Below, one piece after another: positions 5,079 through 27,461 of a stretch of 64,000 bases of DNA. The notes beneath the pieces are model-generated. The model had not been told where the DNA came from. It worked only from the letters and a program-made list of their open reading frames with translations, and ran no database searches. Source of the DNA: Phycisphaerae bacterium (GTDB lineage Bacteria; Planctomycetota; Phycisphaerae; UBA1845); NCBI GenBank assembly GCA_963666835.2, contig CAXXGO010000001.1, positions 1,024,001 to 1,088,000 on the forward strand, given 5' to 3'. Positions within the stretch are counted from its first letter, which is position 1; each line of letters starts with the position of its first letter. A program made the position numbers and the translations under genes.

Positions 5079-5301
5079 GTGCGGTTGGGATTGCCCTGAG
5101 CAGGTTCTGCCCTTGTTTCCAGACTGCATACGCGGGCGTCGCGTTGAACCTGCGATTTCAAGGCTCAATCCATGGGAGTGCGGGTATATCCGCGGCTGCC
5201 TTGCGACAACTCGAAATTTGTGCATTTGTGTTGTAATGCACTGCGAAATCAATTAATCTGGAGCTTGGGTCAGAACTTTGGTCTCTCGGAGGAGAACGAA
5301 G

Positions 5302-8300
5302 ATGTCGCGTCCTGGCACGTCCGCATTGATAATCTCGCTGGCTATCCTGTCTTCGGTAAGCGCCCAGACTGTGATCCATGTTGACATTGATGCTCCACCT
5401 GACGGAGATGGGACGTCCTGGACGACTGCCTACAACTCACTGTCCGCTGCTCTGGCGGCTGCGGAACCAGGCGATCAGATTTGGGTGGCGGCCGGGCGGT
5501 ATGTGGGGAGGATCAGGCTTGCGCTTGAGGTCCAGCTTTATGGCGGTTTCGCGGGCACGGAGACCGAGTTGGATCAGCGCGACTGGACGACCCACAAGAC
5601 CATCATCGATGGCGACAAACGCGGCAGCGTGGTCACCTCGCCCGTTGGCGCGGGCGAAACGACGCGGATCGACGGCTTCACGATCACGGGAGGTGGCGCC
5701 TTCTACGGGGGCGGGCTGCTCCTCGAAAGTTCCTCCCCGACTATCGCGAACAACACGATCACGGGAAACAGTGGCTGGCACGGCGGCGGGCTGTATCTGT
5801 CGAATTCCGATGCAACGATTGCGAACAACACGATCACGGAAAACACGGCTCTTAGAGACTGCTATGGTGGCGGCGGGTTGTACCTGTACGAGTCCTCGCC
5901 GGTGATCGCGAACAACACAATTACGGGCAACAGCGCAGCCGACTCCGGTGGCGGGCTGTTGCTCGAGAGTTCCTCCCCGACGATCGCGAACAACACGATC
6001 ACGGGCAACGGCGCCTGGAGCGGCGGCGGGCTGTATCTGCGGTCTTCCGCCCCGACGATCACGAACACTATCATCGCGTTGAACTCGTCCGGGGTCCACC
6101 TGGAAGACGACGAAAACACGCCGACTCTCCGGTACAACTGCGTCTACGGCAACGCCGCGTACGATTGGTATGGACTCCCGAACCCCACCGGGACCGATGG
6201 GAACATCTCGCAGGACCCGTTGCTTGCCGATGCACGGTATCGCAACGTACACATCCAGCCGGACTCGCCTTGCGTGGATGCCGGAAGCAACCCGGACGCC
6301 TACGGCAACCTCGATCTGGATGGAGAGCCCCGCATCCATCCGGTGGACGGAATCGTGGATATCGGAGCCGACGAGTCGGATGGTACGTTGTGGCCAACAG
6401 GGCCGTATGCCGTTGTGCGAGTGAGCTCCCTGGGGGACGACATCAACGACGGCTCGTCCTGGGCCCAGGCCAAATGCACGGTCCAGGCGGGAGTCGACGC
6501 GGCATCGGTGCTGGGTGGCGAGGTGTGGGTGCAGTCCGGTTCTTACGAGGAGAACATCACCCTACGCCCCTATGCCTACCTCTACGGAGGCTTCGCTGGT
6601 GACGAGGAGGTCCGGGACGAGCGGGATTGGGCTGCTAACGTCACAATACTAGACGGCCGGCAGCAGGATTCGGTCGTGGCCGCAAGAGCGGGCTACAATG
6701 TAAGTGCCATCGAGGGCTTCACGATCACGGGAGGTCGCGCCAATCACGGCGGCGGGCTGCACGTGTACGGTTCCTCCCCGACGATTGCGAACAATACCAT
6801 CGCGGGAAACACGGGCGGCGGGCTGTATCTGTGGTATTCCGATGCAACGATTGCGAACAACACGATCACGGGAAACAGGGGCTCCCATGGCGGCGGGCTG
6901 TATCTGTGGCATTCCGTTGCAACGATCGCGAACAACACGATTAGGGGCAACAGCGCAGCCGACTCCGGTGGCGGGCTGTTGCTCGAGAGTTCCTCCCCGA
7001 CGATCGCGAACAACACGATAACGGGCAACAACGCCTACAGCGGCGGCGGACTGCACCTCGAGGATTCGTTCCCGGCGATCGCGAACACGATCATAGCGTT
7101 CAACTCGTCCGGGGTTTACCTGGACGATACAAGCGCGCCGACCCTCTGGCACAACTGCGTCTACGGCAACCCCGGGTACGATTACGATGGTCTCTCGGAC
7201 CCCACCGGGACCGGCGGCAACATCTCCCAAGACCCGTTGCTTGCCGATGCCCGGTATGGCAACGTACACATCCAGCCGGGCTCGCCTTGCGTGGATGCCG
7301 GAAGCAACCCGGACGCCTACGGTGATTTCGATGTGGATGGCGAGCCCCGCATCCATCCGGTGGACGGAATCGTGGACATCGGGGCCGACGAGTCGGATGG
7401 TACGTTGTGGCCAACGGGGCCGTATACCGTTGTACGGGTGAGCCCCCTGGGAGACGACATCAACGACGGCTCGTCCTGGACCCTGGCCAAATGCACGGTC
7501 CAGGCGGCAGTCGACGCGGCATCGGTACTCGGTGGCGACGTGTGGGTGCAGTCCGGTTCCTACGAGGAGAACATCACCCTGCAACCCTATGCCTACCTCT
7601 ATGGAGGCTTCGCCGGGAACGAAGAGGTTAGGGACGAGCGGGACTGGGTTGCCAACGCTACGATTCTCGACGGCCGGCAGCAAGGTTGGGTCGTGACGGC
7701 AGAAGCGGGCCACCATGTAAGCGCCATCGACGGCTTCACGATTACGGGAGGTGGCGCCATGTACTCGTACGGCGGCGGGCTGCGGCTGGTGTCTTCCTCC
7801 CCGACAATCGCGAACAACACGATAACGGGAAACAGCGCCGTCTTCGGCGGCGGGCTGTACCTGTTGTCTTCCTCCCCAACGATCGCGAACAACACGATTA
7901 CGGGCAACAATTCATCCGACGAGGGCGGCGGGCTGTTCCTCGAGAGTTCCTCCCCGACCATCGCGAACAACACGATCACGGGAAACGCCTCTAGATATAG
8001 ATCTGGCGGCGGGCTGTACCTGTTGTCTTCCTCCCCGACGATCGCGAACAACACGATCACGGGAAACAGTGCCGAACGCGGCGGCGGGCTGTATCTCCGG
8101 GATTCCTTCCCGACGATCGCGAACAACACGATAACGGGAAACCGTTCATCCGGCTGCGGCGGCGGACTGTATCTGTGGTCTTCCTCCCCGACGACTGCGA
8201 ACAACACGATCACGAGCAACAGCGCGGTCAACGGCGGCGGGCTGTACCTTTACAACGGTTCCTCCCCGATGATCGCGAACACGATCATCGCGCTCAACTC

Positions 8301-10206
8301 GTCCGGGGTTTACGTGTACGACAGCGAGCCGACCCTCTGGTACAACTGCGTCTACGGCAACGCCGAGTACGATTACGATGGCCTCTCGGACCCCACTGGG
8401 ACCGATGGCAACATCTCCGAAGACCCGTTGCTTGCCGATGCACAGTATGGCAACGTACATATCCAGCCGGACTCGCCTTGCGTGGATGCCGGAAGCAACA
8501 CGGATGTCTACGGTGATTCCGATCTCGATGGAGAGCCCCGCATCCATCCGGCGGACGGAATCGTGGATATCGGAGCGGACGAGTCGGATGGTAGCTTGTG
8601 GCCAGCGGGGCCATACGCCGTTGTACGGGTGAGTCCCCTGGGGGACGACATCAACGACGGCTCGTCCTGGGCCCTGGCCAAGTATACGGTCCAGGCGGCA
8701 GTCGACGCGGCATCGGTCCTGGGTGGCGAGGTGTGGGTGCGGTCCGGTTCCTACGAAGAGAACATCACCCTACACCCCTATGCCTACCTCTATGGAGGCT
8801 TCGCCGGCGACGAAGACGTTCGGGGCGAGCGGGACTGGGTTGCCAACGTTACGATTCTCGACGGTCGGCAGCAAGGGGCGGTGGTGACTGCGAATGCGGG
8901 CCACCATGCAAGCGCCATCGACGGCTTCACGATCACGGGAGGGAGCGCCAAGTACGGCGGCGGGCTGTCGCTGTTGCATTCCTCCCCCACGATTGCGAAC
9001 AACACGATCACGGTCAACAGTTCATCCGAAGACGGCGGCGGATTGTATCTCCGGTATTCCTTCCCGACGATCGCGAACAACACGATAACGGGCAACAGTG
9101 CCAAACACGACGGCGGTGGACTGTATCTGCAATATTCCTCCCCAACGATAGCAAACAACACAATAACGGGCAACACGACTGACGGAAGCTGCAACGGCGG
9201 CGGCGGACTGTATCTGCATTATTCGTCCCCGACGATCGCGAACAACACGATAACGGGCAACAGTGCCAAATACGACGGCGGCGGGCTGCGTCTGCATTAT
9301 TCTTCCCCGACGATCGCGAACAACACGATAACGGGCAACACGGCCAGTGACGACGGCGGCGGGCTGTTCATGTCGAGATCCTCCCCGACGATCGCGAACA
9401 ACACGATAACGGGCAACAGCGCAGCCGACTTCGGCGGTGGGCTGTATCTGTGGTATTCCGATGCAACGATCGCGAACAACACGATAACGGGCAACAGCGC
9501 AGCCGACTCCGGCGGTGGGCTGTGTCTGTCGTATTCCTCAAACCCGACGATCGCAAACACGATCATCGCATTCAACTCATCCGGAGTTTACCTGGACGAC
9601 GACACAAACGCGCCGACCCTCTGGTACGACTGCGTCCACGGCAACGCCGAATACGACTACGATGGCCTCCCGGACCCCACCGGGACCGACGGCAACATCT
9701 CGCAAGACCCGCTGTTCGTGCGAGATCCCGACGATGGTGGCGACGGCTGGGGTGATGATCCCGACACGCCGGCCATCGACGAAGGCGCCAACGACGACTA
9801 CGGCAACCTCCGCCACTTGCCTGGCTCGCCGTGCATTGACGCCGCTGACAACGATGCCGTCCCCGACGACACGCTCGACCTGGACGGTGATGGCGACGTG
9901 ACCGAATCGATCCCGTTCGACCTCGATGGCTACACCCGCTTCGTGGATGACCCGCGGACGGCGGACGCAGGGAACCCCGGCGGGCACGGACCGCCCGTTG
10001 TCGATATGGGTGCCTACGAGTTCCGCCCGGGGGACTGCGGCCATGACGGTGACGTGGACATGTCCGACTACGCAGAGTGGGAGAGCTGTCTCTCGGGCCC
10101 CGAGTACCAGACCCCGGCCGAGTGCGAGTGCTTCGACGTAAACGGCAACGATCACGTTGACCTCGCTGACTTTGCCGTGCTTCAGGTGAATCTCACGGGG
10201 CCGTGA
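5302..10206 (+). CDS. Giant secreted right-handed beta-helix repeat protein (four modules, choice-of-anchor-Q-like segments) with C-terminal dockerin-like domain
   Basis: GGAGG RBS and signal peptide; about 25 GGGLYL..SSPTIANNTITGN coils; SPCVDAG...VDIGADE motifs; GDC.HDGDVD...VDLADFA tail. Confidence 0.9.
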   Translation: MSRPGTSALIISLAILSSVSAQTVIHVDIDAPPDGDGTSWTTAYNSLSAALAAAEPGDQIWVAAGRYVGRIRLALEVQLYGGFAGTETELDQRDWTTHKTIIDGDKRGSVVTSPVGAGETTRIDGFTITGGGAFYGGGLLLESSSPTIANNTITGNSGWHGGGLYLSNSDATIANNTITENTALRDCYGGGGLYLYESSPVIANNTITGNSAADSGGGLLLESSSPTIANNTITGNGAWSGGGLYLRSSAPTITNTIIALNSSGVHLEDDENTPTLRYNCVYGNAAYDWYGLPNPTGTDGNISQDPLLADARYRNVHIQPDSPCVDAGSNPDAYGNLDLDGEPRIHPVDGIVDIGADESDGTLWPTGPYAVVRVSSLGDDINDGSSWAQAKCTVQAGVDAASVLGGEVWVQSGSYEENITLRPYAYLYGGFAGDEEVRDERDWAANVTILDGRQQDSVVAARAGYNVSAIEGFTITGGRANHGGGLHVYGSSPTIANNTIAGNTGGGLYLWYSDATIANNTITGNRGSHGGGLYLWHSVATIANNTIRGNSAADSGGGLLLESSSPTIANNTITGNNAYSGGGLHLEDSFPAIANTIIAFNSSGVYLDDTSAPTLWHNCVYGNPGYDYDGLSDPTGTGGNISQDPLLADARYGNVHIQPGSPCVDAGSNPDAYGDFDVDGEPRIHPVDGIVDIGADESDGTLWPTGPYTVVRVSPLGDDINDGSSWTLAKCTVQAAVDAASVLGGDVWVQSGSYEENITLQPYAYLYGGFAGNEEVRDERDWVANATILDGRQQGWVVTAEAGHHVSAIDGFTITGGGAMYSYGGGLRLVSSSPTIANNTITGNSAVFGGGLYLLSSSPTIANNTITGNNSSDEGGGLFLESSSPTIANNTITGNASRYRSGGGLYLLSSSPTIANNTITGNSAERGGGLYLRDSFPTIANNTITGNRSSGCGGGLYLWSSSPTTANNTITSNSAVNGGGLYLYNGSSPMIANTIIALNSSGVYVYDSEPTLWYNCVYGNAEYDYDGLSDPTGTDGNISEDPLLADAQYGNVHIQPDSPCVDAGSNTDVYGDSDLDGEPRIHPADGIVDIGADESDGSLWPAGPYAVVRVSPLGDDINDGSSWALAKYTVQAAVDAASVLGGEVWVRSGSYEENITLHPYAYLYGGFAGDEDVRGERDWVANVTILDGRQQGAVVTANAGHHASAIDGFTITGGSAKYGGGLSLLHSSPTIANNTITVNSSSEDGGGLYLRYSFPTIANNTITGNSAKHDGGGLYLQYSSPTIANNTITGNTTDGSCNGGGGLYLHYSSPTIANNTITGNSAKYDGGGLRLHYSSPTIANNTITGNTASDDGGGLFMSRSSPTIANNTITGNSAADFGGGLYLWYSDATIANNTITGNSAADSGGGLCLSYSSNPTIANTIIAFNSSGVYLDDDTNAPTLWYDCVHGNAEYDYDGLPDPTGTDGNISQDPLFVRDPDDGGDGWGDDPDTPAIDEGANDDYGNLRHLPGSPCIDAADNDAVPDDTLDLDGDGDVTESIPFDLDGYTRFVDDPRTADAGNPGGHGPPVVDMGAYEFRPGDCGHDGDVDMSDYAEWESCLSGPEYQTPAECECFDVNGNDHVDLADFAVLQVNLTGP

Positions 10207-15582: not shown

Positions 15583-16211
15583 CAGATCTACTCCTCCAGA
15601 GCACCAGGACAGAGAATCGACTTCGGAGGCGGATCCTCCCCGGCAAGACCTCGCCTGCGTCCTGGCCCATTATCCGCCTGTAGGTCGTTGCGCCGACCCC
15701 TTGGCAGTTTTTGCCTCGATGCGGCGGATTAATCCGAGATTCCGCCGGATTCGCGAGAGGGTTGCCAAGAAGATGCGATCCCGGTTCCGCAAACGGCGGG
15801 CGTTTGGACTCTCGTTGCAGGGCCGCGAGCGTCTCCGGCGAAGGGCGAGATTGTCCAAGGTGGGCTCCGTTCGGTTTCGAACAAGCGTGCGGACAAGCTG
15901 TGCCGGAACGCGAGACTGGTGCATCTTACATCACTGTAAGAATGACGATGGTAGCCATGAGATTCGCCGGAGCTTAGAATGCGTCAAGTTGTAAGTTCTT
16001 TGTTGATAAAGAGTACGGAAGTGGGTTCGTGCGTTTGAGGCGCTCGACCGCCTCGGGCCGCACCGAGTCGGAGGGAGGCGTAATCTGCCTCCGCCGCGAG
16101 CAGCTTCCTTCGGATATCGTCGCCGCGATTCCGGTGGGGCTGTTGCGAGATGGGGCCGTCGAAGCACGTGTTCTTCTGCGGGCGGGCTGGGCGGTTTCGG
16201 AGTTATCTGTC

Positions 16212-16661
16212 TTGAATTCAAAACCGATCGTCGGTCGGCGCGAGTATGTGGCGTTCCCGGAGTGGGGTATTAAGGGTGTCGAGGCGAAGATCGACACGGG
16301 AGCTCGCACGAGCGCAATTCACGTGGACAACGTCAAGCGACTTCCGAAGGATCGCGTTCAGTTTGATGTAGTCCTGAGCCGCCGGAAGCCGGACAGGCGC
16401 GTTCACGTAGAGGCTGACTTAGTCCGTTTCACGCGCGTGCGATCCAGTACGGGGCACCGGCAGGAGCGATTCGTGGTGGCGACAAAGATACGAATCGGAG
16501 ATATCAAACGCAGAATCGAGCTGAGCCTCGTATCCAGGAAGCAGATGCTCTGCAGGATGTTGCTGGGCAGGACGGCCGTAACCGGCCTTCTGATCGATGT
16601 CGACGTAAAACACCTCCATGGTGTGCCGAAGCGTCAGGGCCCGAAAGGACGTGCCAAATGA
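16212..16661 (+). CDS. RimK-associated retropepsin-like protease (Zn_protease / Pseudomonas RimB-like)
   Basis: VGRRE.V.FPE.G...AKIDTGARTSA.H...R.M...MLLGR; TTG start after GGAG; stop overlaps the rimK start. Confidence 0.88.
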   Translation: MNSKPIVGRREYVAFPEWGIKGVEAKIDTGARTSAIHVDNVKRLPKDRVQFDVVLSRRKPDRRVHVEADLVRFTRVRSSTGHRQERFVVATKIRIGDIKRRIELSLVSRKQMLCRMLLGRTAVTGLLIDVDVKHLHGVPKRQGPKGRAK

Positions 16662-17866
16662 AGATCGCCATTCTGTCAAGAGCTCCCAACTGCTACAGCA
16701 CGAAGCGCCTTTGGCAGGCCGCGGAACTGCGCGGCCATCAGGTTTCCGTTCTCAACACCGGGCATTTTGCCATCTCGCTCGAGGAGCAATACCCCGACCT
16801 TTACTACGATGGCAAGCCCGTTGCGCCCTTCGATGCCGTTATTCCGCGGATTGGTTCGCCAATGACGTATTTCGGTACGGCAGTGGTCAGGCAATTCGAG
16901 GAAATGGGCGTCTTCTCGGCGAACTCGGCGATTGGGATCATTCACTCGCGTGACAAGCTCCGTTGCCTGCAAATCCTGAGCAGGCATGACGTCGGCATCC
17001 CTCAGACCGCATTCGTCCGCGACCGCAAGGACGTACTCCCGGCGATCAAACGCGTCGGGGGCGCGCCCATCATTATCAAGCTCCTGGAAGGCACTCAAGG
17101 TGTCGGGGTGATATTGGCTGACACGATCAAAGTGGCGGAAGCGATTGTCGAAACCCTGCAGAGTGCCAAGCAGAACGTACTTATACAGAAGTTTGTCTCT
17201 GAGAGTAAGGGCAAGGATGTGCGCGCCTTCGTCGTTGGAGAGCGCGTGGTCGCCGCGATGCGACGGGTCGCTCAGGGACAGGAGTTCCGGAGTAATGTGC
17301 ATCGCGGCGGCATGGCCGAAGCGATCACGCTCGATCCTGAATACGAGCAGACCGCCATTCGGGCAGCGCAGTTGGTGGGGCTGCGTGTGGCCGGCGTCGA
17401 CATGCTCGAGGGCACGGACGGCCCCCAGATCATGGAAGTCAACTCGTCGCCGGGGCTCGAGGGTATTGAAAGCGCAACACAAATCGACGTTGCCGGGGCA
17501 ATCGTTGAATACCTGGAAGATCGAGTGAATCTGCCGGATATGGACCTGCGCCAGCGACTTACCGTAACACGAGGGTACGGCGTTGGAGAAATCCCCGTTC
17601 CGAAGAGTTCGGCCCTGGTCGGCACGTCGATCGTAGACACGAATCTGCGGGCACTCGACATCGTGGTGTTGACGCTTCACCGCGGGAAGAAAGTCATTGC
17701 CAACCCGAAGGAGACCCGCAAGCTTCGTGCGGGCGATCGCCTGCTGTGTTTCGGAAAACTCGACGAGATGAAGGCGCTCATTCCACGACGCAAGAAACGC
17801 CGGGTCAAGAAGCTGGCGAAGAAGGTCGTGGAAGAGGCGATGGCATCCGCACCAGAGCAAGGATAG
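16658..17866 (+). CDS. rimK: RimK alpha-L-glutamate ligase (ATP-grasp) with C-terminal TrkA-C/RCK_C domain
   Basis: MKIAILSR, DAVIPRIG, SRDKLR, KLLEGTQG.GV, FRSNVHRGG, MEVNSSPGLEGIE; extra C-terminus S.LVG....LR...V...RG...I.NP....L.AGD.L..FG. Confidence 0.92.
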   Translation: MKIAILSRAPNCYSTKRLWQAAELRGHQVSVLNTGHFAISLEEQYPDLYYDGKPVAPFDAVIPRIGSPMTYFGTAVVRQFEEMGVFSANSAIGIIHSRDKLRCLQILSRHDVGIPQTAFVRDRKDVLPAIKRVGGAPIIIKLLEGTQGVGVILADTIKVAEAIVETLQSAKQNVLIQKFVSESKGKDVRAFVVGERVVAAMRRVAQGQEFRSNVHRGGMAEAITLDPEYEQTAIRAAQLVGLRVAGVDMLEGTDGPQIMEVNSSPGLEGIESATQIDVAGAIVEYLEDRVNLPDMDLRQRLTVTRGYGVGEIPVPKSSALVGTSIVDTNLRALDIVVLTLHRGKKVIANPKETRKLRAGDRLLCFGKLDEMKALIPRRKKRRVKKLAKKVVEEAMASAPEQG

Positions 17867-17870
17867 GCCC

Positions 17871-18944
17871 ATGCCTCGAAAGGACCTTCTTACGTTCGGC
17901 GACGAGAGTGTAGCGCTTGGCCAACGGAGGAATCTCGCCCTCACGGTTTCCCAAAGCTACAGCGGCGCGCCCGTTACCCTTCCGATCACAGTTTGGCGCG
18001 CCGTGAAGCCGGGTCCTGCGGTCTTTGTCACCGCTGCGGTTCACGGCGACGAGCTAAACGGCACGGGAATCGTCCGGGAGATCATCCTCCATGCGCCGTT
18101 TGAACTCATCGCCGGGTCGCTAGTGCTTGTGCCGGTCGTGAATCTGCTCGGTTTTGAACGCCACACCCGCTATCTGCCGGACCGGCGGGACATGAATCGT
18201 TGCTTTCCCGGATCCGCGGACGGCAGCCTGGCGAGCCGCATGGCCCACGTTATCTTCTCCAGCGTTATCAGCCAATGTGACTACGGAATCGATCTTCACA
18301 CGGCCGCGGTACGCCGTACGAATTTCCCGAGCGTGCGAGCGGACCGCAAGAACCCGGAGGCCGCCCGGATTGCCCGAGCATTCGGCTGCGAAGTGATCGT
18401 CAACCGAAAGGGGCCCAAGGCGTCCCTGCGGCGCGAGGCGTGCGACGCCGGGTGCGCAACGGTCATCCTTGAGGCTGGGGAAGTGTGGAAGATCGAGCCC
18501 AACGTGGTGCAGTACGGCATTCGAGGTATTCGAAACGTGCTGATCGAGCTGGGAATGGTAGAAGGGACTCGGGAGGAGCCAGTGTATCAAGTCTGGACTC
18601 GGAAGACCATTTGGGTCCGGGCAAGCTTCGGAGGTATGCTGGCCTTTCACGTGGCTCCAGGCGATATCGTCGAAAAGGACGAGCCCCTGGCGACAAGCAC
18701 GAATCTTCTGGGGGAGGAGCAGGATCTCCTTCGTTCACCCAGTGACGGGATTATACTTGGTATCACAACGCTACCCACCGTTACCCCGGGCAGTCCCGTG
18801 TGCCACATCGCGGTCCCGCGTGGTGGACTCGGGCCGATTCGCCGGGCACTCGAGAAGGAGTCCACCGAGAGTCTGCATGAGCGCCTCAGGGATGACCTTG
18901 CCGCTAGTGTGACTATCTCAGAGCGGGCGGATCCGGCGGGCTGA
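17871..18944 (+). CDS. Succinylglutamate desuccinylase/aspartoacylase (AstE/AspA, M14-like) family protein
   Basis: AAVHGDELNG, RDMNRCFPG, GIDLHT, LEAGE, C-terminal barrel-sandwich domain. Confidence 0.92.
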   Translation: MPRKDLLTFGDESVALGQRRNLALTVSQSYSGAPVTLPITVWRAVKPGPAVFVTAAVHGDELNGTGIVREIILHAPFELIAGSLVLVPVVNLLGFERHTRYLPDRRDMNRCFPGSADGSLASRMAHVIFSSVISQCDYGIDLHTAAVRRTNFPSVRADRKNPEAARIARAFGCEVIVNRKGPKASLRREACDAGCATVILEAGEVWKIEPNVVQYGIRGIRNVLIELGMVEGTREEPVYQVWTRKTIWVRASFGGMLAFHVAPGDIVEKDEPLATSTNLLGEEQDLLRSPSDGIILGITTLPTVTPGSPVCHIAVPRGGLGPIRRALEKESTESLHERLRDDLAASVTISERADPAG

Positions 18945-19020: not shown

Positions 19021-21501
19021 CTACGGATTTCTCTGGTGGTTTGCCCAATCTCGGTATTTCTGCGCCTCTTCGGGTCTCTGGGTGTTCTCGTACAACGCAG
19101 CCAGACAGTTCGCGATTGCCTGAACTCTGCCGTCTTTCGCCCCTACCGAGTCGGTAAGCTCGGTGATCGCTTCCACGAGAGGGGTTTCCGCATCCTCGTA
19201 ACGCTGCAATGCCGAAAAGCAGTAACCGGTCAACGCCTTATGCATGGCCCGGTGCGGATGCCCGGGTGAAAGCGCGTCGCGACTGATTGCTACGGCGCGC
19301 TGCGCCAGTGGCAGAGCCCGTTCCGGGTCACCGCCCATAAGAAAGAAGTCGGCAACGGTGGCGAGCAGGTCGGCCTTAGAACTGCTGTTATCGTCAAGTT
19401 GCCGATCGGCAATGGCAACCGCCTGAAGATATAGCTCTTCAGCCTCCCGCCTCTTGCCCTGATCCGCAAGTATGTTTGCGAGGTTCTGCGTCTTGTAGGC
19501 ATGCTCGGCAGTTTCGTATGAGTATGTTTGATTCAGGATGAGAATCGCTTCGCGCATTGCCTTCTCGGCTTCGTCGTATTCCTCCAGCTTCCGGAGGAGA
19601 ATCCCGAGGTTCTCCAGGTCGCGGCTAACTCGTGCGTGCCTGGCTCCGAAACGTTCCCGATCACGCTCCAAGGCCCGCCTGAGGAATGGCTCGGCTTCGG
19701 CGAGGCGTCCCTGCGCCTGGAGCATGGTGGACACCAAGTTGGCAGCCGTTGCGATGTCGCCATCGAGGTCATCGGGGATGTCCTCTGCGATTTCGAGATA
19801 CTCCCGCGCCGCCTCCTCCCCCTCCTGCAGGTGTTGCTGGAACATCAACACAACAGAGAGTCGGCCTAAGCTGCGACCTAATTCGCTGCGGTGTTCCTTC
19901 CCGTACTTTCTCAAGATCGGAATAGCTGCGCGCAGCCCTTCTTCGGCGCCGGTCAGATCGCCGGTGGTGTACTGCCACACGGCATACCGCGACCGGCTCT
20001 CCGCGGTCTCGGCATGGTCCTCGCCGAAGAGCGCACGGTGCGTTTCCAGGGCGGCGCGCATGTATCTTCCGCCTTCCTCGTACCGCCCCAAATTCATGTA
20101 AGCCACGCCGATCGTTCGCTGCACGATGGCGCGCGCTGTTTCGTCTTGCACGAATCCTTCATTCAGTTGAGCCGCGGTCTTATCCAGCAGCGCGAGAAGG
20201 GCGTCGCCACTCTCGCCCGCGGCGGGATCGGCTTGTACTAACACGCGGTTCAACACGCTGAGTACTTGTTGAGACGTTTCGAACTGCGTCTGTGAGCGGC
20301 GGTAGAGCACAAACACCGACAGGGCGAACACGGTCACCAACACGGTGAATGTGGCGATGGCCCCGACTGCGATGCGATGACGCCGTAAGGTCTTGCAGAA
20401 TACATACCAACGGCGGTCGCGCTTGGCTTCAATAGGCTCGCGGTCCAGGTAATGCTGAATGTCGCTGGTTAACTCGGACACTGACTGATAACGCCGATCG
20501 CGGTCTTTTTCGAGCGTTTTCAGCACGATGGTCTCGATGTCTCCGCGCAGCACTCGGTTAACCGCCGACATGCGACGCGGCTCCTGCTCGCGAATGACGC
20601 GCGGGACGTCGAAGGGGGAGGCGGTGCTGAAGTCGTATGGCAGCTCACCGGTGAGCAACTCGAAGAGCACCACGCCCAGAGCATACACATCCGAGCGCGT
20701 ATCCAACTCGGTCGCATCTCCCTCGCATTGTTCCGGGCTCATATAGCGCAGCGTTCCGACGAGCTTGCCCACGTCCGTCTGCAGGGTGGCGATCGTCAGA
20801 TCGGCATCCGTCGCGCGGGCTACGCCGAAGTCGATTAGCTTGGGCCGACCTCGCTCGTCAACGAGAATGTTGGCTGGCTTCAGGTCGCGATGAATGACCC
20901 CGCGCTGATGCCCGGCCTGCACAGCGTCACAAACCTTCATGAACAGCTTGAGACGATCTCGCGTCGACAGCCGGTTCTCTTCGGCATAGTGCGTGATGGG
21001 CCGTGCCCCGGGGATGAACTCCATCGCAAAAAACGGCGCGCCGTGGTCGCCGCCGTGAGTACCGGCTTCGTAGATCTGGGCGATACCCGGATGTCGCAAT
21101 CGGCCCAGGATCTCGGATTCGTGTTTGAAGCGATGCAGTGCGGAGCGCGAAGCCAAACCGGGCCGGATGACCTTCAAGGCAACGGTCCGGTGCGGCTCCT
21201 CTTGCAGGGCCTCGTATACCGTGCCCATCCCCCCGGCGGCGATCACACGCTGAATATGGTAGCGCCCGATCTTCGTACCAACCAGCGGATCATATTCCGG
21301 AGATGATGGCTTCATCACCTGTTTTGGCGGCTCCAGAAACCCGCGAGCTTGCTCGTCTGCCTTCAGAAGCGATTCGACCTCCGCACGCAGTTCCGGGTCT
21401 CCACGGCAGGCTTCATCGAGGTACGCGATTCGATCCGGCGGCGCACGCTCCAAGACGGCCTCGAACACTTCGATAGTACGTTGACTGTCCGATGTGATCA
21501 T
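19021..21501 (-). CDS. Membrane Hanks-type Ser/Thr kinase with extracytoplasmic TPRs
   Basis: GGMG.VY, VALK, IHRDLKPAN, DFG, GT..YMSPEQ, SDVYALG; one TM; kinesin-light-chain-like TPRs. Confidence 0.95.
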   Translation of the reverse strand: MITSDSQRTIEVFEAVLERAPPDRIAYLDEACRGDPELRAEVESLLKADEQARGFLEPPKQVMKPSSPEYDPLVGTKIGRYHIQRVIAAGGMGTVYEALQEEPHRTVALKVIRPGLASRSALHRFKHESEILGRLRHPGIAQIYEAGTHGGDHGAPFFAMEFIPGARPITHYAEENRLSTRDRLKLFMKVCDAVQAGHQRGVIHRDLKPANILVDERGRPKLIDFGVARATDADLTIATLQTDVGKLVGTLRYMSPEQCEGDATELDTRSDVYALGVVLFELLTGELPYDFSTASPFDVPRVIREQEPRRMSAVNRVLRGDIETIVLKTLEKDRDRRYQSVSELTSDIQHYLDREPIEAKRDRRWYVFCKTLRRHRIAVGAIATFTVLVTVFALSVFVLYRRSQTQFETSQQVLSVLNRVLVQADPAAGESGDALLALLDKTAAQLNEGFVQDETARAIVQRTIGVAYMNLGRYEEGGRYMRAALETHRALFGEDHAETAESRSRYAVWQYTTGDLTGAEEGLRAAIPILRKYGKEHRSELGRSLGRLSVVLMFQQHLQEGEEAAREYLEIAEDIPDDLDGDIATAANLVSTMLQAQGRLAEAEPFLRRALERDRERFGARHARVSRDLENLGILLRKLEEYDEAEKAMREAILILNQTYSYETAEHAYKTQNLANILADQGKRREAEELYLQAVAIADRQLDDNSSSKADLLATVADFFLMGGDPERALPLAQRAVAISRDALSPGHPHRAMHKALTGYCFSALQRYEDAETPLVEAITELTDSVGAKDGRVQAIANCLAALYENTQRPEEAQKYRDWANHQRNP

Positions 21502-21521: not shown

Positions 21522-22097
21522 CTAAGGACGGCTATCAGCCAGTTCGCGATAGAGCCACGCGCGGGCATATTGCCATTGCCGCTCCACAGTACGTGTCGAG
21601 ACTTCCAATACGGCGGCCACTTCGTCGATCGTCAGCCCGCCGAAGAAACGCAGTTCGACAACGCGGGCTCGCTGCGCGTCCTGCTCGGCCAAACGGCAAA
21701 GCGCGTCGTCAAGCGAGAGCAGATCGATCGTCTTTTCGTACTCCGCAATCAAGCCCTCGTCGAGCTGGACCTTGTGCCACTTCCCGCTACGTTTGACCCG
21801 GGCATGACTGCGGGCATGATCGACCAGGATGCGGCGCAGGGCTTGAGCGGCGACGGAGAAGAAATGAGCTCGGTCTTCCCATCGCGCCCGCCTCTGATCG
21901 ACGAGTTTGAGGTAGGCCTCGTGGACGACGGCCGTGGGCTGCAATGTGTGGTCGACGCGTTCCGACCGCATGAGGTCCCCCGCAAGGGCTCGCAGACGGT
22001 CGTAAACCAAGGGGAGGAGTTCATCCGCGGCCCGCGAGTCACCCTCACTTGCCCGGACCAGCAATGCGGTCATATCCTCCAGCTCGGTCATCTCCAC
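21522..22097 (-). CDS. ECF sigma factor, STK-associated (TIGR02999-type)
   Basis: LLPLVY..LR.LA, HTLQPTA.VHEAY.KL, RRILVDHAR, VVELRFFGGLT..E, W.YARAWL. Confidence 0.93.
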   Translation of the reverse strand: MEMTELEDMTALLVRASEGDSRAADELLPLVYDRLRALAGDLMRSERVDHTLQPTAVVHEAYLKLVDQRRARWEDRAHFFSVAAQALRRILVDHARSHARVKRSGKWHKVQLDEGLIAEYEKTIDLLSLDDALCRLAEQDAQRARVVELRFFGGLTIDEVAAVLEVSTRTVERQWQYARAWLYRELADSRP

Positions 22098-22225: not shown

Positions 22226-24484
22226 ATGACACGTATTGTAGCAATTGTGACATTTGCTCTTGCCTTCATGGCGGCAGGAACGGCATTGGCTCTGGAGCCG
22301 GTCGGCACCGCGTTTACCTACCAGGGGCAGCTCAAGCAGAACGGCGCGCCCGTAACCGGTGACGCCGAGTTCATCTTCAAGCTCTGGGACGCCCCAACCG
22401 GGGGAAACCAAGTTGGCGAGACCGTGCAGACTACCGCTACGCATCCGGTTGTTGACGGCCTGTTCACGATCCAACTGGACTTCAACCCTCTTACCGGGTG
22501 GATCTTCGACGGCACGGCCTTCTGGTTGGAGGTGCAAGTGGAGTATCCCGCCGGTTCGGGATCGTGGGAGACGCTGACGCCGCGACAGCGATTAACGGCT
22601 GCGCCTTTCGCCTCGTTCTCCACGCTGGCCACAGCCGTGCCTTGGGCGGGGATTCTCGACCTGCCGGCGAGGTTTGCGGACGGGGTGGATGACGTCGGCG
22701 AAGAACTATTCTGGTCGCTTGTCGGTAACGCGGGCACCACGTCCGGCACCGATTTCATTGGCACGACCGACGACACGCCACTCGAGCTGCGCGTCAACGG
22801 CATGCGTGCTCTTCGGCTCGAGCCGACTGTGAGCTATCCGAACGTCATTGCAGGCCACTCCACGAACCACGCCGATCCTGGCGTTATCGCCGCGGCGATT
22901 TCCGGGGGCGCGTTCAATTCGGTGCACGCATGGCACGCTACCGTCGGCGGTGGGATCGGCAATGAAGCTCACGGCGTCAACTCGACCATAGCCGGCGGCG
23001 ACTACAACATGATTGGCGACGTTGCCGGCTGGGCAACCATTGCCGGTGGGCGAGACAACGAGGCTACTCAGGAATACGCCATGATTCCGGGTGGCCTGGA
23101 GAACTTCGCCGGCGGCGAGTACAGCTTCGCCGCCGGCCGTCGGGCCAAGGTCCGCGGGCCCGGCGAAGTCGGCGGCGAAGACACTAACGGCGACGAGGGC
23201 ACCTTCGTCTGGGCCGACTCGAAGGAAAGCGAGTTCTGGTCCACCGGGCCCAACCAGTTTCTGATTCGCGCCAATGGTGGCGTAGGGATCAACACCAACG
23301 CCCCCGAGGCGACTCTCCATCTTGTTTCGCCCCGCGTTGGCGAACAGATCGACTTGTATTCGCCATTCGGCGGTACGGGCATCGCCGTTGAGGCTACATA
23401 CCCGACCGAATTCGGTTTTCCTATCTACGGAGGCGATTTCCGTGTCACCGGCGCCACTTCCTACGGAGTCTATGCTCAGGCCACCAATTCGCTGCCCGGT
23501 ATTCTCGGCAGCAGCACGTACGGCGTGTACGGTAAGGCCACGAGCGTCGCAGGCGCCGGGGCGAGTGCCTACGGCGGCTATTTCGTGGCCGCGGGCGCTA
23601 CCCCCGGTGCGGGTGTCTACGGACAAGGTGCCACTGGGGTATACGGCACGACCAGTGTTACTGGCGCAGGTGGCGGATACGGCGTACGGGGCGTAGTCGC
23701 GTGTTCCAAGGGAAAAGCCGTGTCCGGCCAGGCAACTGACACCGGATATGGCCCCTCCTACGGCGGATACTTTTCCTCCGGCGGAACCGACGGCATCGGC
23801 GTCTACGGCTATGCTACGGGCAGCGCCGGACGCGGCGTCATCGGCGACGCAACCGGGACGTACGGTATCGGCGTCTACGGCGCGGGCGATACGGGTGTCA
23901 AAGCCGAGGGCACGGGCGAAGCGGGCTATGCCCTCTGGGCCGAGGTGACGGCCGGTAACGGCACCGCCGTCTACGCGAGAAGCGGCGCGTCCGGAGGCTA
24001 TGCCGGTCATTTCGTCGGCAACGTGAAGATCTGCAGCCGCGAGAGCGGGGCCACGGTGATCGAGTTGGGCACCGGTCTGGACTACGCGGAAGGTTTCGAT
24101 GTCACCGACGCGCCCGCCGTTGCGCCCGGTATGGTGCTCGTGATCGACCCGCGGCATCCTGGGCAGCTCGCTTTGAGCACGACGGCCTACGATCGCAAGG
24201 TTGCCGGAATCGTGGCCGGTGCCAACGGGCTGGGCTCCGCGGTCAAGTTGGGTTGCGGACAATTCGACCATGACGTTGCCCTGGCCGGGCGCGTGTACTG
24301 CTTCGCCGTAGCCGGAGACGAGCCCATTGAGCCGGGTGATCTGCTCACGTCCTCCGATGTACCGGGGCACGCGATGAAGGTCCAGGATCATAGTCGAGCA
24401 CAGGGGGCGATTCTCGGCAAAGCAATGGAGCGGCTCGAAGCAGGTAAGCATGGGCAGATCCTCGTGTTGGTAACGCTGCAGTAG
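22226..24484 (+). CDS. Secreted fibre-like protein: FTYQGQL N-domain, Gly-rich beta repeats, C-terminal peptidase-G2-like (DYAE) chaperone
   Basis: Signal peptide; ATIAGG.N.A and YGVYG.A repeats; GVGINT; DYAEGF...VALAGRV...PGDLL...GAILGKAM. Confidence 0.75.
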   Translation: MTRIVAIVTFALAFMAAGTALALEPVGTAFTYQGQLKQNGAPVTGDAEFIFKLWDAPTGGNQVGETVQTTATHPVVDGLFTIQLDFNPLTGWIFDGTAFWLEVQVEYPAGSGSWETLTPRQRLTAAPFASFSTLATAVPWAGILDLPARFADGVDDVGEELFWSLVGNAGTTSGTDFIGTTDDTPLELRVNGMRALRLEPTVSYPNVIAGHSTNHADPGVIAAAISGGAFNSVHAWHATVGGGIGNEAHGVNSTIAGGDYNMIGDVAGWATIAGGRDNEATQEYAMIPGGLENFAGGEYSFAAGRRAKVRGPGEVGGEDTNGDEGTFVWADSKESEFWSTGPNQFLIRANGGVGINTNAPEATLHLVSPRVGEQIDLYSPFGGTGIAVEATYPTEFGFPIYGGDFRVTGATSYGVYAQATNSLPGILGSSTYGVYGKATSVAGAGASAYGGYFVAAGATPGAGVYGQGATGVYGTTSVTGAGGGYGVRGVVACSKGKAVSGQATDTGYGPSYGGYFSSGGTDGIGVYGYATGSAGRGVIGDATGTYGIGVYGAGDTGVKAEGTGEAGYALWAEVTAGNGTAVYARSGASGGYAGHFVGNVKICSRESGATVIELGTGLDYAEGFDVTDAPAVAPGMVLVIDPRHPGQLALSTTAYDRKVAGIVAGANGLGSAVKLGCGQFDHDVALAGRVYCFAVAGDEPIEPGDLLTSSDVPGHAMKVQDHSRAQGAILGKAMERLEAGKHGQILVLVTLQ

Positions 24485-24501
24485 AAGGGAGACGCGGATC
24501 A

Positions 24502-26079
24502 ATGAGAGGCATAACGTTCATAACATCGCTCGCGTTGACGTTGCCCTGGCTGTCGCCGGTTCTCGCGCCCGCGCAAACGGTGACCGAGCAGGAGGCACAC
24601 ATCGTCGCGCAGAACTGGATGGCGTTCATCTGTCAGCGGGACGGTGCATGGTTCGAAGAGAATAATCCGGAGATCGTGAAACTCGAACCGTTGCGGATTG
24701 ACGGCCAACTTGCCGGTTACGTCGCCCACGTTCAACCGCAAGGCTACGTTGTGGTTTCGGCGCACACGGATTTTCCGCCAATCAAGATGTACTCAACAAG
24801 CAGTTCTCTTGACATAACAAGCTCTCACGGGTTTGCGGCGGTGGCGAAGCGCACGCTCGGCCAACGCGTCCGATTCCTCGTAGCGGAGTTCGGCGGGCTC
24901 GATGACGCTCAACTGTCCGGCCTGCGCCACCATACGCCCGACGAGAATCGGGAACTGTGGACTCTGCTGAAAGGAAGGGGACAGGATTGGGTTACGACGT
25001 TGGGTTCGGTGCAAACGGATGGTCGAGGGATTGTCGGTCCGCTGCTGGAAACGAGCTGGCACCAGAGGGTCCCGTACAACGACCTATGCCCGAGTATGGG
25101 TTGTACCACCGGGTGCGGCGGGTTTAACGATCGGGCGGTTGTAGGCTGTTGCCCGTTGGCGATGGCGCAGGTGATGCGTTACTTCGCCTGGCCGCCGTAC
25201 ATCTACGACGACTGGGATGCCCCCTATGACTGGACAGTGATGCACAAACGGTACGAGTGCGACGGAAACGGCTGGTTCAACGACGAAAGCGGCGAGTCCG
25301 TGACCTCATTCTCAATATACGAGACTGCACGCATTTGCGCGGACGCAGGCTGGACGCTGGAGGACTCGTGGCCGTGTAATGGCATCGTCTATGGCTGCGG
25401 TTCGACCAGTGCCTCGGGCTGTCATTGGGCATGCAACGATGCGCGCGACGGGCTTGAGGACTATCTCAAATACGACCAGTCCGGAAAAGAACCCGATTGC
25501 GAGGATCGCACCGAGCACTCTGCTGCGGGTTGGTTCGATGTGATAGCTGACGAGCTCGACGTCAATCGGCCCATGATCTACCGTATTAGCGACGGGGACG
25601 ACTATGGCCACTATGTCGTGGTGGACGGATACGACGATACCGGCGGGCAGGACTTCGTTCACGCTAACTACGGGCACGACCAAGGAAACACTACCTGGTA
25701 CGCGATTGACAATTTCGACTGCGGCGGCGGTGACTGCAACTACGAGGAGGAGTATCTCATCCGCCGGATCATCCCACGTTATGGTTTCTGTGGCAGCATC
25801 TCCGGCACACTGCCGGCCCGAGATGATCCGTCCCACGTGCATCGCTACGTTTACTGCGACTGTGCCTCGACCAATCTGACCGTGCTGGGCGGAGCGTGGT
25901 TGCAGTTCCTTCCCGGCACCAGCTTGAAGTGCGCCGCCAACTCGATCGACGTGCCGGGCCGCAACGCGGTCGAAGGAGCGACGAAGTTCTTCACCCTTAC
26001 GGGGGAAGAGGGAGCGATGGTGGTCGAGGAGTACGGTCATGTTCGGCTACTACCCGGCGGCGGTCTGCGTCTTCATTAG
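24502..26079 (+). CDS. Secreted C10 (streptopain-family) cysteine protease with Spi-like propeptide
   Basis: GYVVVSA propeptide; PLL...WHQ..PYN..CP; VGCCPLAMAQVMRY; GHYVVVDGY; HANYG. Confidence 0.88.
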   Translation: MRGITFITSLALTLPWLSPVLAPAQTVTEQEAHIVAQNWMAFICQRDGAWFEENNPEIVKLEPLRIDGQLAGYVAHVQPQGYVVVSAHTDFPPIKMYSTSSSLDITSSHGFAAVAKRTLGQRVRFLVAEFGGLDDAQLSGLRHHTPDENRELWTLLKGRGQDWVTTLGSVQTDGRGIVGPLLETSWHQRVPYNDLCPSMGCTTGCGGFNDRAVVGCCPLAMAQVMRYFAWPPYIYDDWDAPYDWTVMHKRYECDGNGWFNDESGESVTSFSIYETARICADAGWTLEDSWPCNGIVYGCGSTSASGCHWACNDARDGLEDYLKYDQSGKEPDCEDRTEHSAAGWFDVIADELDVNRPMIYRISDGDDYGHYVVVDGYDDTGGQDFVHANYGHDQGNTTWYAIDNFDCGGGDCNYEEEYLIRRIIPRYGFCGSISGTLPARDDPSHVHRYVYCDCASTNLTVLGGAWLQFLPGTSLKCAANSIDVPGRNAVEGATKFFTLTGEEGAMVVEEYGHVRLLPGGGLRLH

Positions 26080-26164
26080 ACGCGAGAGGCGTCTGTGGCC
26101 GGATACGACTGGCGTTGCCCGACTGTCAGGAAACTAGCCTGCGATACTCGCAGAGGATTCAATC

Positions 26165-26671
26165 ATGAAGCACGATAACACGCTCAAACACGTGTCCCTG
26201 ATCCTGCTCAGTTTGTCCGTAGTCCTTGCTGCCGGTTTCGAGCAGTTCCGGAGTATTGCCCTGGACTGGTACACCGTCGACGGTGGCGGGGACATGCGGT
26301 TGACCGGCGGTAGTCTTGAACTCTCCGGCACTATCGGCCAACCCGATACGGACAGTTCGCTGACCATGAATGGCCCGACACTGTCACTCACCGGGGGGTT
26401 CTGGGCCGGCGTACCGGAAACCGTCTCCGTCCCGGGCGACTGTACCGGCGATCGGGTGGTTGACTTGGACGATTTCGAGCTCATCGCGCCGTGCCTGACC
26501 GGTCCTGGGATCATTATCACAGTTGATTGCGATTGTGCCGATCTGGACGGTGATGATGATAGCGACTTGGCGGACTTCGCCGTGTTTCAACGGACGCTTG
26601 ACTCACAGGAGGACCGCCGCGGTGTTTACAGGGCTGACGTCCCGTTACCGACCGAATTTATCGCCACTTGA
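26165..26671 (+). CDS. Small secreted protein (WYTVDGGG...SGTIGQPD...LTGGFW) with dockerin-like tail
   Basis: Signal-like N-terminus, compact beta-rich motif, GDC.GD..VDL.DF...ADLDGD.D.DLADFA.FQ. Confidence 0.75.
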   Translation: MKHDNTLKHVSLILLSLSVVLAAGFEQFRSIALDWYTVDGGGDMRLTGGSLELSGTIGQPDTDSSLTMNGPTLSLTGGFWAGVPETVSVPGDCTGDRVVDLDDFELIAPCLTGPGIIITVDCDCADLDGDDDSDLADFAVFQRTLDSQEDRRGVYRADVPLPTEFIAT

Positions 26672-26816: not shown

Positions 26817-27461
26817 ATGGCAATGCGCAAACTCTCTGTCTGGGTGGGGCTGCTTCTCATCGCTGGTGCCGGGATAGCTGAGGCGTCTCCGGTCGAGTTG
26901 TCAATCGCACCCGTTTTCGGGTCGACCGAAAACACCGGGTCGACCGCTACGATCACGCTTGCCTTCAGTGAGCAAGGGCTCGATGACCTCATGGAAGTCA
27001 CGCTGGCGAACACGACCGACCCGGTTCTCGGCTCGAAGCTCACGGCCGCCGGCATCGAGCTGCCCGACGTGCTTTCGTCGAGCATTACACTGGCGACGGC
27101 CAGTTCGTATTTCGACCAGCTTACCTTTGACGTTAACGTCTCGCCGGGTTGGATCGACGCTCCCGGCGGCTATGACCTGATTCTCTCGAGCGACGGCAAT
27201 TTCCAGGGCGGTAATCCAAACGGCAGTCCGGAGGCCGGGCAGTCACAGTCCGTGCTACTGAACCTCGGGGATACCGGACTCAGCCCCGCCGAGCTGGAAA
27301 CCGCGTTTGAGAGCTTCTACGCCGACTTCGACGGCAATCACGCCATATGCCGCTTTCAGTCCGTAGGTCCAAACGGCCAACTGTCCGATATGGTGGTCCC
27401 GGAACCGGCCACGCTCGTCTTGCTGGCTCTCGGTGGTTGGGCGGTTCGGCGCAGATTCTAA
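26817..27461 (+). CDS. PEP-CTERM sorting-domain protein
   Basis: Signal peptide; C-terminal VPEPATLVLLALGGWAVRRRF. Confidence 0.9.
   Translation: MAMRKLSVWVGLLLIAGAGIAEASPVELSIAPVFGSTENTGSTATITLAFSEQGLDDLMEVTLANTTDPVLGSKLTAAGIELPDVLSSSITLATASSYFDQLTFDVNVSPGWIDAPGGYDLILSSDGNFQGGNPNGSPEAGQSQSVLLNLGDTGLSPAELETAFESFYADFDGNHAICRFQSVGPNGQLSDMVVPEPATLVLLALGGWAVRRRF

Follow-up and report, generated by a model that had tools for sequence, protein, structure and literature searches.

A MAT-like secreted fibre encoded beside a tailed C10 protease and a small adaptor candidate in a Phycisphaerae genome

Three genes for a fibre, a protease and a small protein

We analysed a 64,000-nucleotide stretch (hereafter the window) of the Phycisphaerae bacterium assembly GCA_963666835.2 (contig CAXXGO010000001.1, positions 1,024,001 to 1,088,000 of the forward strand), in which three co-directional genes on the + strand encode a secreted MAT-like, putatively trimeric fibre of 752 amino acids (aa) (22226..24484), a secreted C10 cysteine protease of 525 aa with a Spi-like prodomain (24502..26079) and a small secreted adaptor candidate of 168 aa (26165..26671). 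The gaps between them measure 17 bp (fibre to protease) and 85 bp (protease to small gene). An earlier note on this DNA, made from the letters alone, had placed the three genes co-directionally, in the same order and at positions that agree with the list of open reading frames (ORFs), and had read the locus as a domesticated phage-fibre-like adhesin tethered to the cell by the small protein. That interpretation, taken as a whole, is partly supported: the locus is real, widespread and not viral, and its MAT-like fibre belongs to a three-part arrangement of which we found no description. Contigs from two studies contain the whole stretch unbroken and without gaps, one with 0 and the other with 11 differing letters; one of these contigs is possibly the window's source. 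Signal peptides of the three proteins were assigned by eye.

The fibre was recognised from its ORF, a match to UspA1, a structural match of its C-domain and matches of its N-domain to that of MAT fibres. Its N-domain, the proposed adaptor-binding base, is of the FTYQG type (residues ~23-128, 22292..22609), weakly matches the MAT N-domain and carries the FTYQGQL motif at residue 30 (DNA 22313). Gly-rich repeats resembling those of UspA1 follow (residues 206-329, 22841..23212; PDB 3PR7, E 1.3e-13), and then the GVYG/GGYF beta repeats of the distal shaft, whose limits were set by eye (residues ~405-600, 23438..24025). The C-domain (residues 619-752, 24080..24481), placed by model, structure search and alignment, is G2-like (gp12 D4 / beta-tulip), belongs to a group that we call the alpha clade and opens with DYAE at residue 619 (DNA 24080). 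Pfam, NCBIfam and PHROG searches found no family spanning the full fibre, and a full-length single-sequence model was poor (predicted local distance difference test, pLDDT, 39.7). The trimeric likeness of the fibre rests on matches to trimeric proteins, namely UspA1, gp12 and decoration proteins.

The second gene is indeed a C10 protease, as had been claimed (PF01640, E 1.4e-25, over the cut-off), with Gln188, Cys216, His370 and Asn389 at the C10 motif positions, which we take to correspond to the SpeB-type triad. It ends in a beta-rich C-terminal tag of ~100 aa, here called tail B (residues 426-525, 25777..26076), which emerged from locus comparison and which the earlier note had not described. 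In the small protein, WYTVDGGG at residue 35 and TIGQ at residue 56 belong to a DGGG/TIGQ/GGFW motif of ~55 aa (26255-26410) delimited by motif comparison, and a dockerin-like tail (26432-26599), below the cut-off of PF00404, comes after it. At its end (26600-26671) the protein extends ~20 residues beyond its seven stand-alone paralogues, with no indel in the compared contigs.

The fibre N-domain and its small partner

The N-domain appears to be distantly related to that of the Bdellovibrio MAT fibres, at scores below the family cut-off. When cut out as a domain it matched NF053851 (Bdello_MAT_N) at 15.5 bits (E 0.011), against a curated cut-off of 60 bits, and the full-length window fibre gave no match with this profile. 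Eight of 12 paralogous N-domains were matched (best E 6.9e-6), and a genome search with NF053851 returned five matches, all inside these N-domains; none of these scores exceeded the cut-off. A profile of the N-domain had no match in the PDB, and the ESM Atlas returned unnamed clusters. In the single-sequence model, residues 3-107 gave generic Ig-like matches (Z <=6.4), so that an Ig-like sandwich may be entertained as a hint, not a result.

The source genome (6.0 Mb) carries 14 N-domain genes, 10 small-motif genes and 7 C-domains of the window type, in the same pairings, and because these pairings recur across the paralogues the arrangement of the locus is not due to chance. The 14 paralogues end in different tips: seven are G2-like, two S74, one tail-collar-like and four of other types. 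All 10 small-motif genes have an N-domain gene of the same strand no more than 1.8 kb away, on one side or the other, and 10 of the 14 N-domain genes have a small-motif neighbour. The association predicted between the two families also holds across phyla. Among 78 metagenome loci chosen by the N-domain, which are not independent because many come from close Anaerolineae-type relatives, the small motif was found in 52, and in 27 of the 32 that were at least 6 kb long. Of the 80 genome loci chosen instead by the C-domain, 60 have an N-domain; a profile detected the small motif in 30 of those 60, a divergent form was recognised by eye in 5 more, and the motif occurred in 3 further loci where the start of the fibre is cut off. 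Complete fibres without the N-domain had no small motif (0/10).

After the small motif come at least four unrelated, lineage-typical tails, while the module itself is constant. By eye, we take these tails to be dockerin-like, T9SS/FlgD-like (T9SS, type IX secretion system), a short end of the Anaerolineae LPL type and a Verrucomicrobia-type domain. A constant module with lineage-swapped tags, always beside an untagged fibre, is how an adaptor would be expected to look, and from this gene context we consider it likely that the small protein binds the fibre N-domain. About 37 proteins of the source genome carry a similar dockerin-like tail.

Some paralogous loci depart from the window's layout. 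On contig C1 of the source genome (L012:747-7342), a short tail-collar-like fibre precedes a 1850-aa PA14/dockerin protein that starts with the small motif, the adaptor being fused there to a large protein; L026 and L168 contain similar fusions. Another locus (L011, contig C6:1815324-1817235) encodes a 207-aa N-domain protein with collagen-like repeats that apparently goes on in a different frame; a small-motif gene comes next. A CRISPR-like repeat array, its repeats visible in translation, lies after one paralogous operon (contig C1, ~2167300-2168166).

The C-domain and the tailed enzymes behind it

A model of the C-terminal 180 residues, built with 79 sequences, was confident (pLDDT 92.7), and its best match among 48,161 chains was the C-terminal fragment of phi29 gp12 (Z 13.2, root-mean-square deviation 2.3, 109 aligned residues). 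The alignment begins with Asp619 opposite residue 692, at which the gp12 fragment starts. Tied with this match (Z 12.6, within 1 Z) is 8QSY, a decoration protein of a viral capsid. In all 79 aligned relatives Asp619 and Glu622 are invariant. The sole PDB match of the C-domain by sequence was the Dpo31 D4 chaperone (E 0.81), and a seven-sequence profile gave chance-level PDB matches and a weak PF23982 match in 2 of 7. The peptidase G2 assignment of the earlier note is thus borne out by the model and its top match, but not by the Pfam G2 profile PF11962, which had no match in the genome at E<=1 and matched its control in Bacillus subtilis. As modelled, the C-domain is supported as a G2-type chaperone by fold and motif. 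In gp12, Glu695 presumably has the catalytic role, and we lean towards the prediction that the fibre cuts itself before Asp619, using Glu622.

A fold known from phage spikes and capsids could suggest a remnant of a prophage or of an injection-system tail. The three proteins have signal peptides and the 14 paralogues are scattered; PHROG searches returned no family for the fibre, the protease or the small protein, which agrees with the absence of a phage link noted earlier, tblastn of the N- and C-domains against 50,697 phage records found no match, and a scan of IMG/VR with two patterns gave no confirmed N-domain. We therefore rejected a phage origin, which we judge extremely improbable. A cytoplasmic-looking clade of C-domains with an ADCAE motif occurs on plasmids of Bacillus, Streptomyces, Paraburkholderia, Acaryochloris and Hymenobacter (L094-L098), in proteins with no evident signal peptide and with small neighbours of no recognised function.

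The genome's six other operons with this type of C-domain contain eight secreted hydrolases (C10 twice, clostripain, trypsin-like twice, M6-like, astacin and GH99-like) that end in a tail of ~74 aa, tail A, and within the source genome its C-terminal form is confined to those eight proteins. Tail A corresponds to the N-cap and first coil of a right-handed beta-helix (E 8e-6), with DUF1565 found in 8 of 47. Profile comparison of tail B with tail A by hhalign gave a probability of 0.8%, tail B had no match in the PDB, in Pfam or to tail A, and the ESM Atlas held nothing at >=0.8; by profile comparison, then, the two tails appear unrelated. Tail B occurs once in the source genome and elsewhere only downstream of alpha-clade fibres.

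We surveyed 82 C-domain genes in 80 loci, chosen by the C-domain alone. The first tagged gene downstream carried tail B in 27 cases and tail A in 40 (two of them N-terminal); five had neither tail, and the remaining 10 had less than 2 kb of sequence left downstream. The two N-terminal cases are L052:3568-4812 and L068:8494-10362, where tail A stands at the start of the partner. In the alpha clade, which includes the window fibre, all 27 evaluable genes are followed by tail B; every tail-B case belongs to this clade (SH-aLRT 99 in a quick tree), which is nested within tail-A rows. The trees were a quick IQ-TREE and a FastTree on a hand-picked subset of 60 rows (43-44 of the 82 locus rows, the window, 11 metagenome and 5 plasmid rows). 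A family scan that covered 62 of 77 listed tagged proteins placed 18 of 23 tail-B proteins in C10 and left 5 without family, and distributed 39 tail-A proteins among about ten hydrolase families, with 11 left without one; carriers of tail A include C10, C11, S1, S8, S53, M4, M6-like, M12A, M12B, M43, beta-lactamase-like, EEP, Vps10 and Kelch proteins. When 61 genomes were sampled evenly across the class, 7 had the C-domain, and the loci fetched from them had a tail-A gene downstream in 9 of 9 and a small gene in 7 of 9. Seen from the tail, 17 of the 19 best tail-A matches lie in C-domain loci (11 of 13 when the source genome is excluded). Fibres with other C-domains were followed by C-terminal tails in none of 28 evaluable cases, and 25 more were too short. 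From this context it is fairly probable that the tail binds the C-domain or the adjoining junction. The protease, which the earlier note had treated as a bystander, thus becomes a third part of the arrangement, tied to the C-domain.

The protease could nonetheless be merely co-regulated with a MAT-like adhesin that is held by the small protein, its tail binding substrate or the cell surface independently. A fibre and small gene without a tagged enzyme are common, tail A derives from carbohydrate-active beta-helices, and shared regulation is plausible. Upstream of the operon, on the - strand, lie a divergent ECF (extracytoplasmic function) sigma factor gene (21522..22097; TIGR02999 over cut-off) and, paired with it, a Ser/Thr kinase gene with a TPR region (19021..21501; by family search), both probable regulators that the earlier note had not reported. 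An ECF or kinase gene occurs within 2.5 kb upstream of 4 of the 7 fibres with this C-domain and of 5 of the 14 N-domain fibres, against 2% of random places, so that the operon is probably inducible; promoter and terminator scans of the locus found nothing above chance level. Co-regulation would, however, not explain why the tails are confined to one C-domain clade, change from one type to the other with the subclade and follow none of the 28 other evaluable fibres, nor why the genome's single tail B is found here despite closer C10 paralogues, and we regard this two-part model as improbable.

Another possibility is that the protease matures the fibre or the adaptor and that the tail targets it to this substrate. 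Tagged partners are mostly proteases, and clade-specific residues of the fibre cluster around the predicted cut (615-623). Further such clusters lie on the C-domain, at 664-673, 681-694 and 744-745; taken together, these positions fit a retained cap and a newly exposed end alike. Against a maturation enzyme, some tagged partners are not proteases (GH99-like, EEP, Vps10, Kelch), proteases of all catalytic classes are interchangeable, with several per operon, and neither the Asp nor the Glu of the self-cleavage motif varies; we hold this explanation to be very improbable.

A possible enzyme-tipped fibre and its relation to known systems

We hypothesize that the locus encodes a three-part, cell-encoded surface fibre, trimeric and adaptor-anchored, with a hydrolase docked at its tip, and we give this reading an even chance. 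Fibre, protease and small protein would leave the cytoplasm via Sec, and the gp12-type C-domain, whose fold is confidently modelled, would help the fibre to trimerise before a probable self-cut ahead of Asp619 through Glu622. The N-domain would then bind the small protein at its ~55-aa motif, and the dockerin-like tail of that protein, as the lineage's general envelope or export tag, could hold the base of the fibre on the cell. The protease would bind the distal end via tail B, likeliest on a C-domain trimer retained after cleavage, and the fibre would present it away from the surface, where it could attack protein particles, biofilm matrix or the coats of other cells. A docking role for the C-domain is favoured because its fold is common to trimeric capsid decoration proteins and the phi29 head-fibre base, which are docking modules. 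An ATP site in 3SUC/3GQK is mentioned in the available portion of PMC13317679. As ATP is scarce outside the cytoplasm, and release of the gp12 domain is reportedly ATP-driven, the domain could remain on the fibre as a cap once it has been cut. That the enzyme stays on an anchored fibre we rate slightly below even.

Several observations weigh against this reading, in which every binding claim is drawn from gene context. The tree shows just one A-to-B switch, and the clade match is therefore one contrast, however many phyla it spans; tail B could moreover be a subfamily domain, as it sits mostly on one family (C10 in 18 of 23 scanned proteins). Two outer C-domain clades have no tagged partner, one made up of six Anaerolineae-type loci with the small gene directly after the fibre and the other of four plasmid loci with readable downstream genes (Bacillus, Paraburkholderia, Acaryochloris and Hymenobacter), so that docking, if real, would be the derived function and help in folding the ancestral one. 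To these are added the 5 of 82 C-domain genes with neither tail, and L026, an alpha-clade locus with a separate tail-A-like ORF behind its tail-B protease. On the adaptor side, 4 of the 14 N-domain genes, including both S74 fibres, lack an adjacent small gene. The dockerin-like end scored 17.3 bits against PF00404 (E 0.0054), below the cut-off of 22.9, with two EF-hand-like repeats seen by eye, and the cohesin profile PF00963 gave five weak matches in the genome, one of them over the cut-off only together with its neighbours. Finally, the fibres of Runella rosea (L093) and L062 lack the N-domain, and their tail-A enzyme carries a T9SS tag; with such a tag on the enzyme and no N-domain on the fibre, the enzyme could hold or export the fibre there, reversing which part carries the other. 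The Runella rosea locus, on a plasmid of strain HYN0085 (L093:5143-8231; WP_114070692.1, WP_114070691.1), is a cultured example, with a short fibre beside the T9SS-tagged tail-A protein.

The L093 and L062 loci, where the fibre is also untagged, are among the points that favour an escort during export or folding. The small protein and the tails would pair with the fibre at that stage only, after which fibre and enzyme separate, the tagged partner pulling the untagged fibre out or the released C-domain chaperoning or removing the enzyme as a soluble complex. The small protein bears export-type tags in several phyla, and in gp12 and Dpo31, according to the available portion of PMC13317679, the domain is lost from the mature spike, a poor fit with a permanent docking site. 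Conversely, the window enzyme has no tag except tail B and hence cannot escort the fibre, and one tail on unrelated enzyme folds suits a docking tag better than a folding client. We consider an escort unlikely, while giving it more weight than any other alternative to an enzyme-tipped fibre.

If the enzyme-tipped fibre is extended to all the loci, a general bacterial system in more than a dozen phyla may tentatively be proposed. A phage spike chaperone would serve in it as a retained, clade-specific docking cap for tagged hydrolases, with two or more tag-cap codes that are unrelated to each other (A and B). MAT-superfamily fibres would be mounted, on diderm envelopes as on those of Anaerolineae, by one universal small adaptor whose sorting tails differ between lineages, and this adaptor would be the missing anchor of MAT-type N-domains. 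Should the tails dock on the tip, bacteria would have, besides the cellulosome, another modular way to display enzymes, made of phage-derived parts with orthogonal tag-cap pairs. This would account for many secreted proteins that lack annotation in Planctomycetota, Verrucomicrobiota, Chloroflexota, Bacteroidota and candidate phyla, and would bear on how these bacteria break down protein particles or attack other cells.

Elsewhere in the window, directly 3' of the operon (26817-27461, +), lies a gene for a Cistern-like PEP-CTERM protein (NF033947, 37.9 bits against a cut-off of 60). A second N-domain fibre of 791 aa (41204-43579, -) ends in an S74 chaperone (PF13884, E 2.8e-16) and has neither an adjoining small gene nor a tagged enzyme. 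A 1642-aa protein (5278-10206, +) combines an ordinary N-terminal beta-helix cap with a dockerin-like tail, and an ordinary RimK-type ligase cluster was recognised by eye at 16029-18944 (+), with a putative protease, RimK and a deacylase.

The earlier note knew of no characterised system of this kind. This holds for the adaptor and the tagged enzymes, of which the open-access literature gave no description (subscription papers and preprint supplements were outside the scope), but not for the fibre: it is similar to the MAT fibres of Bdellovibrio bacteriovorus (Caulton et al. 2024, PMC10769870; NF053851), the closest system to it that we found. As in MAT fibres, as far as the available portion of that paper describes them, a signal peptide (assigned by eye) directly precedes a conserved beta-rich N-domain of ~110-130 aa, the shaft is mosaic, swappable tips, S74 included (2 of 14 paralogues here), sit on a constant base, and there are many paralogues per genome. 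Unlike them, the window-type genes are accompanied by a small tag-bearing partner and tagged hydrolases, their N-domain scores far below the cut-off, and their gp12/G2-type chaperone tip is not among the tips found in that portion of PMC10769870. The same portion reports no PDB homologue of the MAT N-domain, lists MAT homologues in PVC, FCB, OP3 and Myxococcales (Table S3) and describes the N-domain's partner on the cell surface as awaiting identification, so that the small protein is a concrete anchor candidate for this branch of the superfamily.

The C-domain shares its fold and DxAE motif with D4 of phi29 gp12 (peptidase G2; PDB 3GQH, 3SUC) and of Dpo31 (PDB 28NB; PMC13317679, in its available portion). 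It differs from gp12 D4 in its length (134 vs 163 residues), in having no PF11962 match, in being part of an exported cellular protein and in that one clade of its type is tied to tagged enzymes. With beta-tulip decoration proteins and the phi29 head-fibre base gp8.5 (PDB 8QSY, 6QYY, 5WK1) it has in common a trimeric protein-docking fold, but those are viral capsid parts in which no role of a DxAE motif is known. The Gly-rich head repeats are like those of the trimeric autotransporter adhesin UspA1 (PDB 3PR7), from which the window fibre differs in lacking a C-terminal membrane barrel, so that its anchoring must come in trans. In the cellulosome, diverse hydrolases share a short tag, the dockerin, that docks on the cohesins of an anchored scaffold. 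The kit proposed here would follow the same logic with a docking pair that is not homologous and a trimeric phage-like fibre as scaffold, and its dockerin-like unit lies on the adaptor, whereas that of the cellulosome lies on the enzyme.

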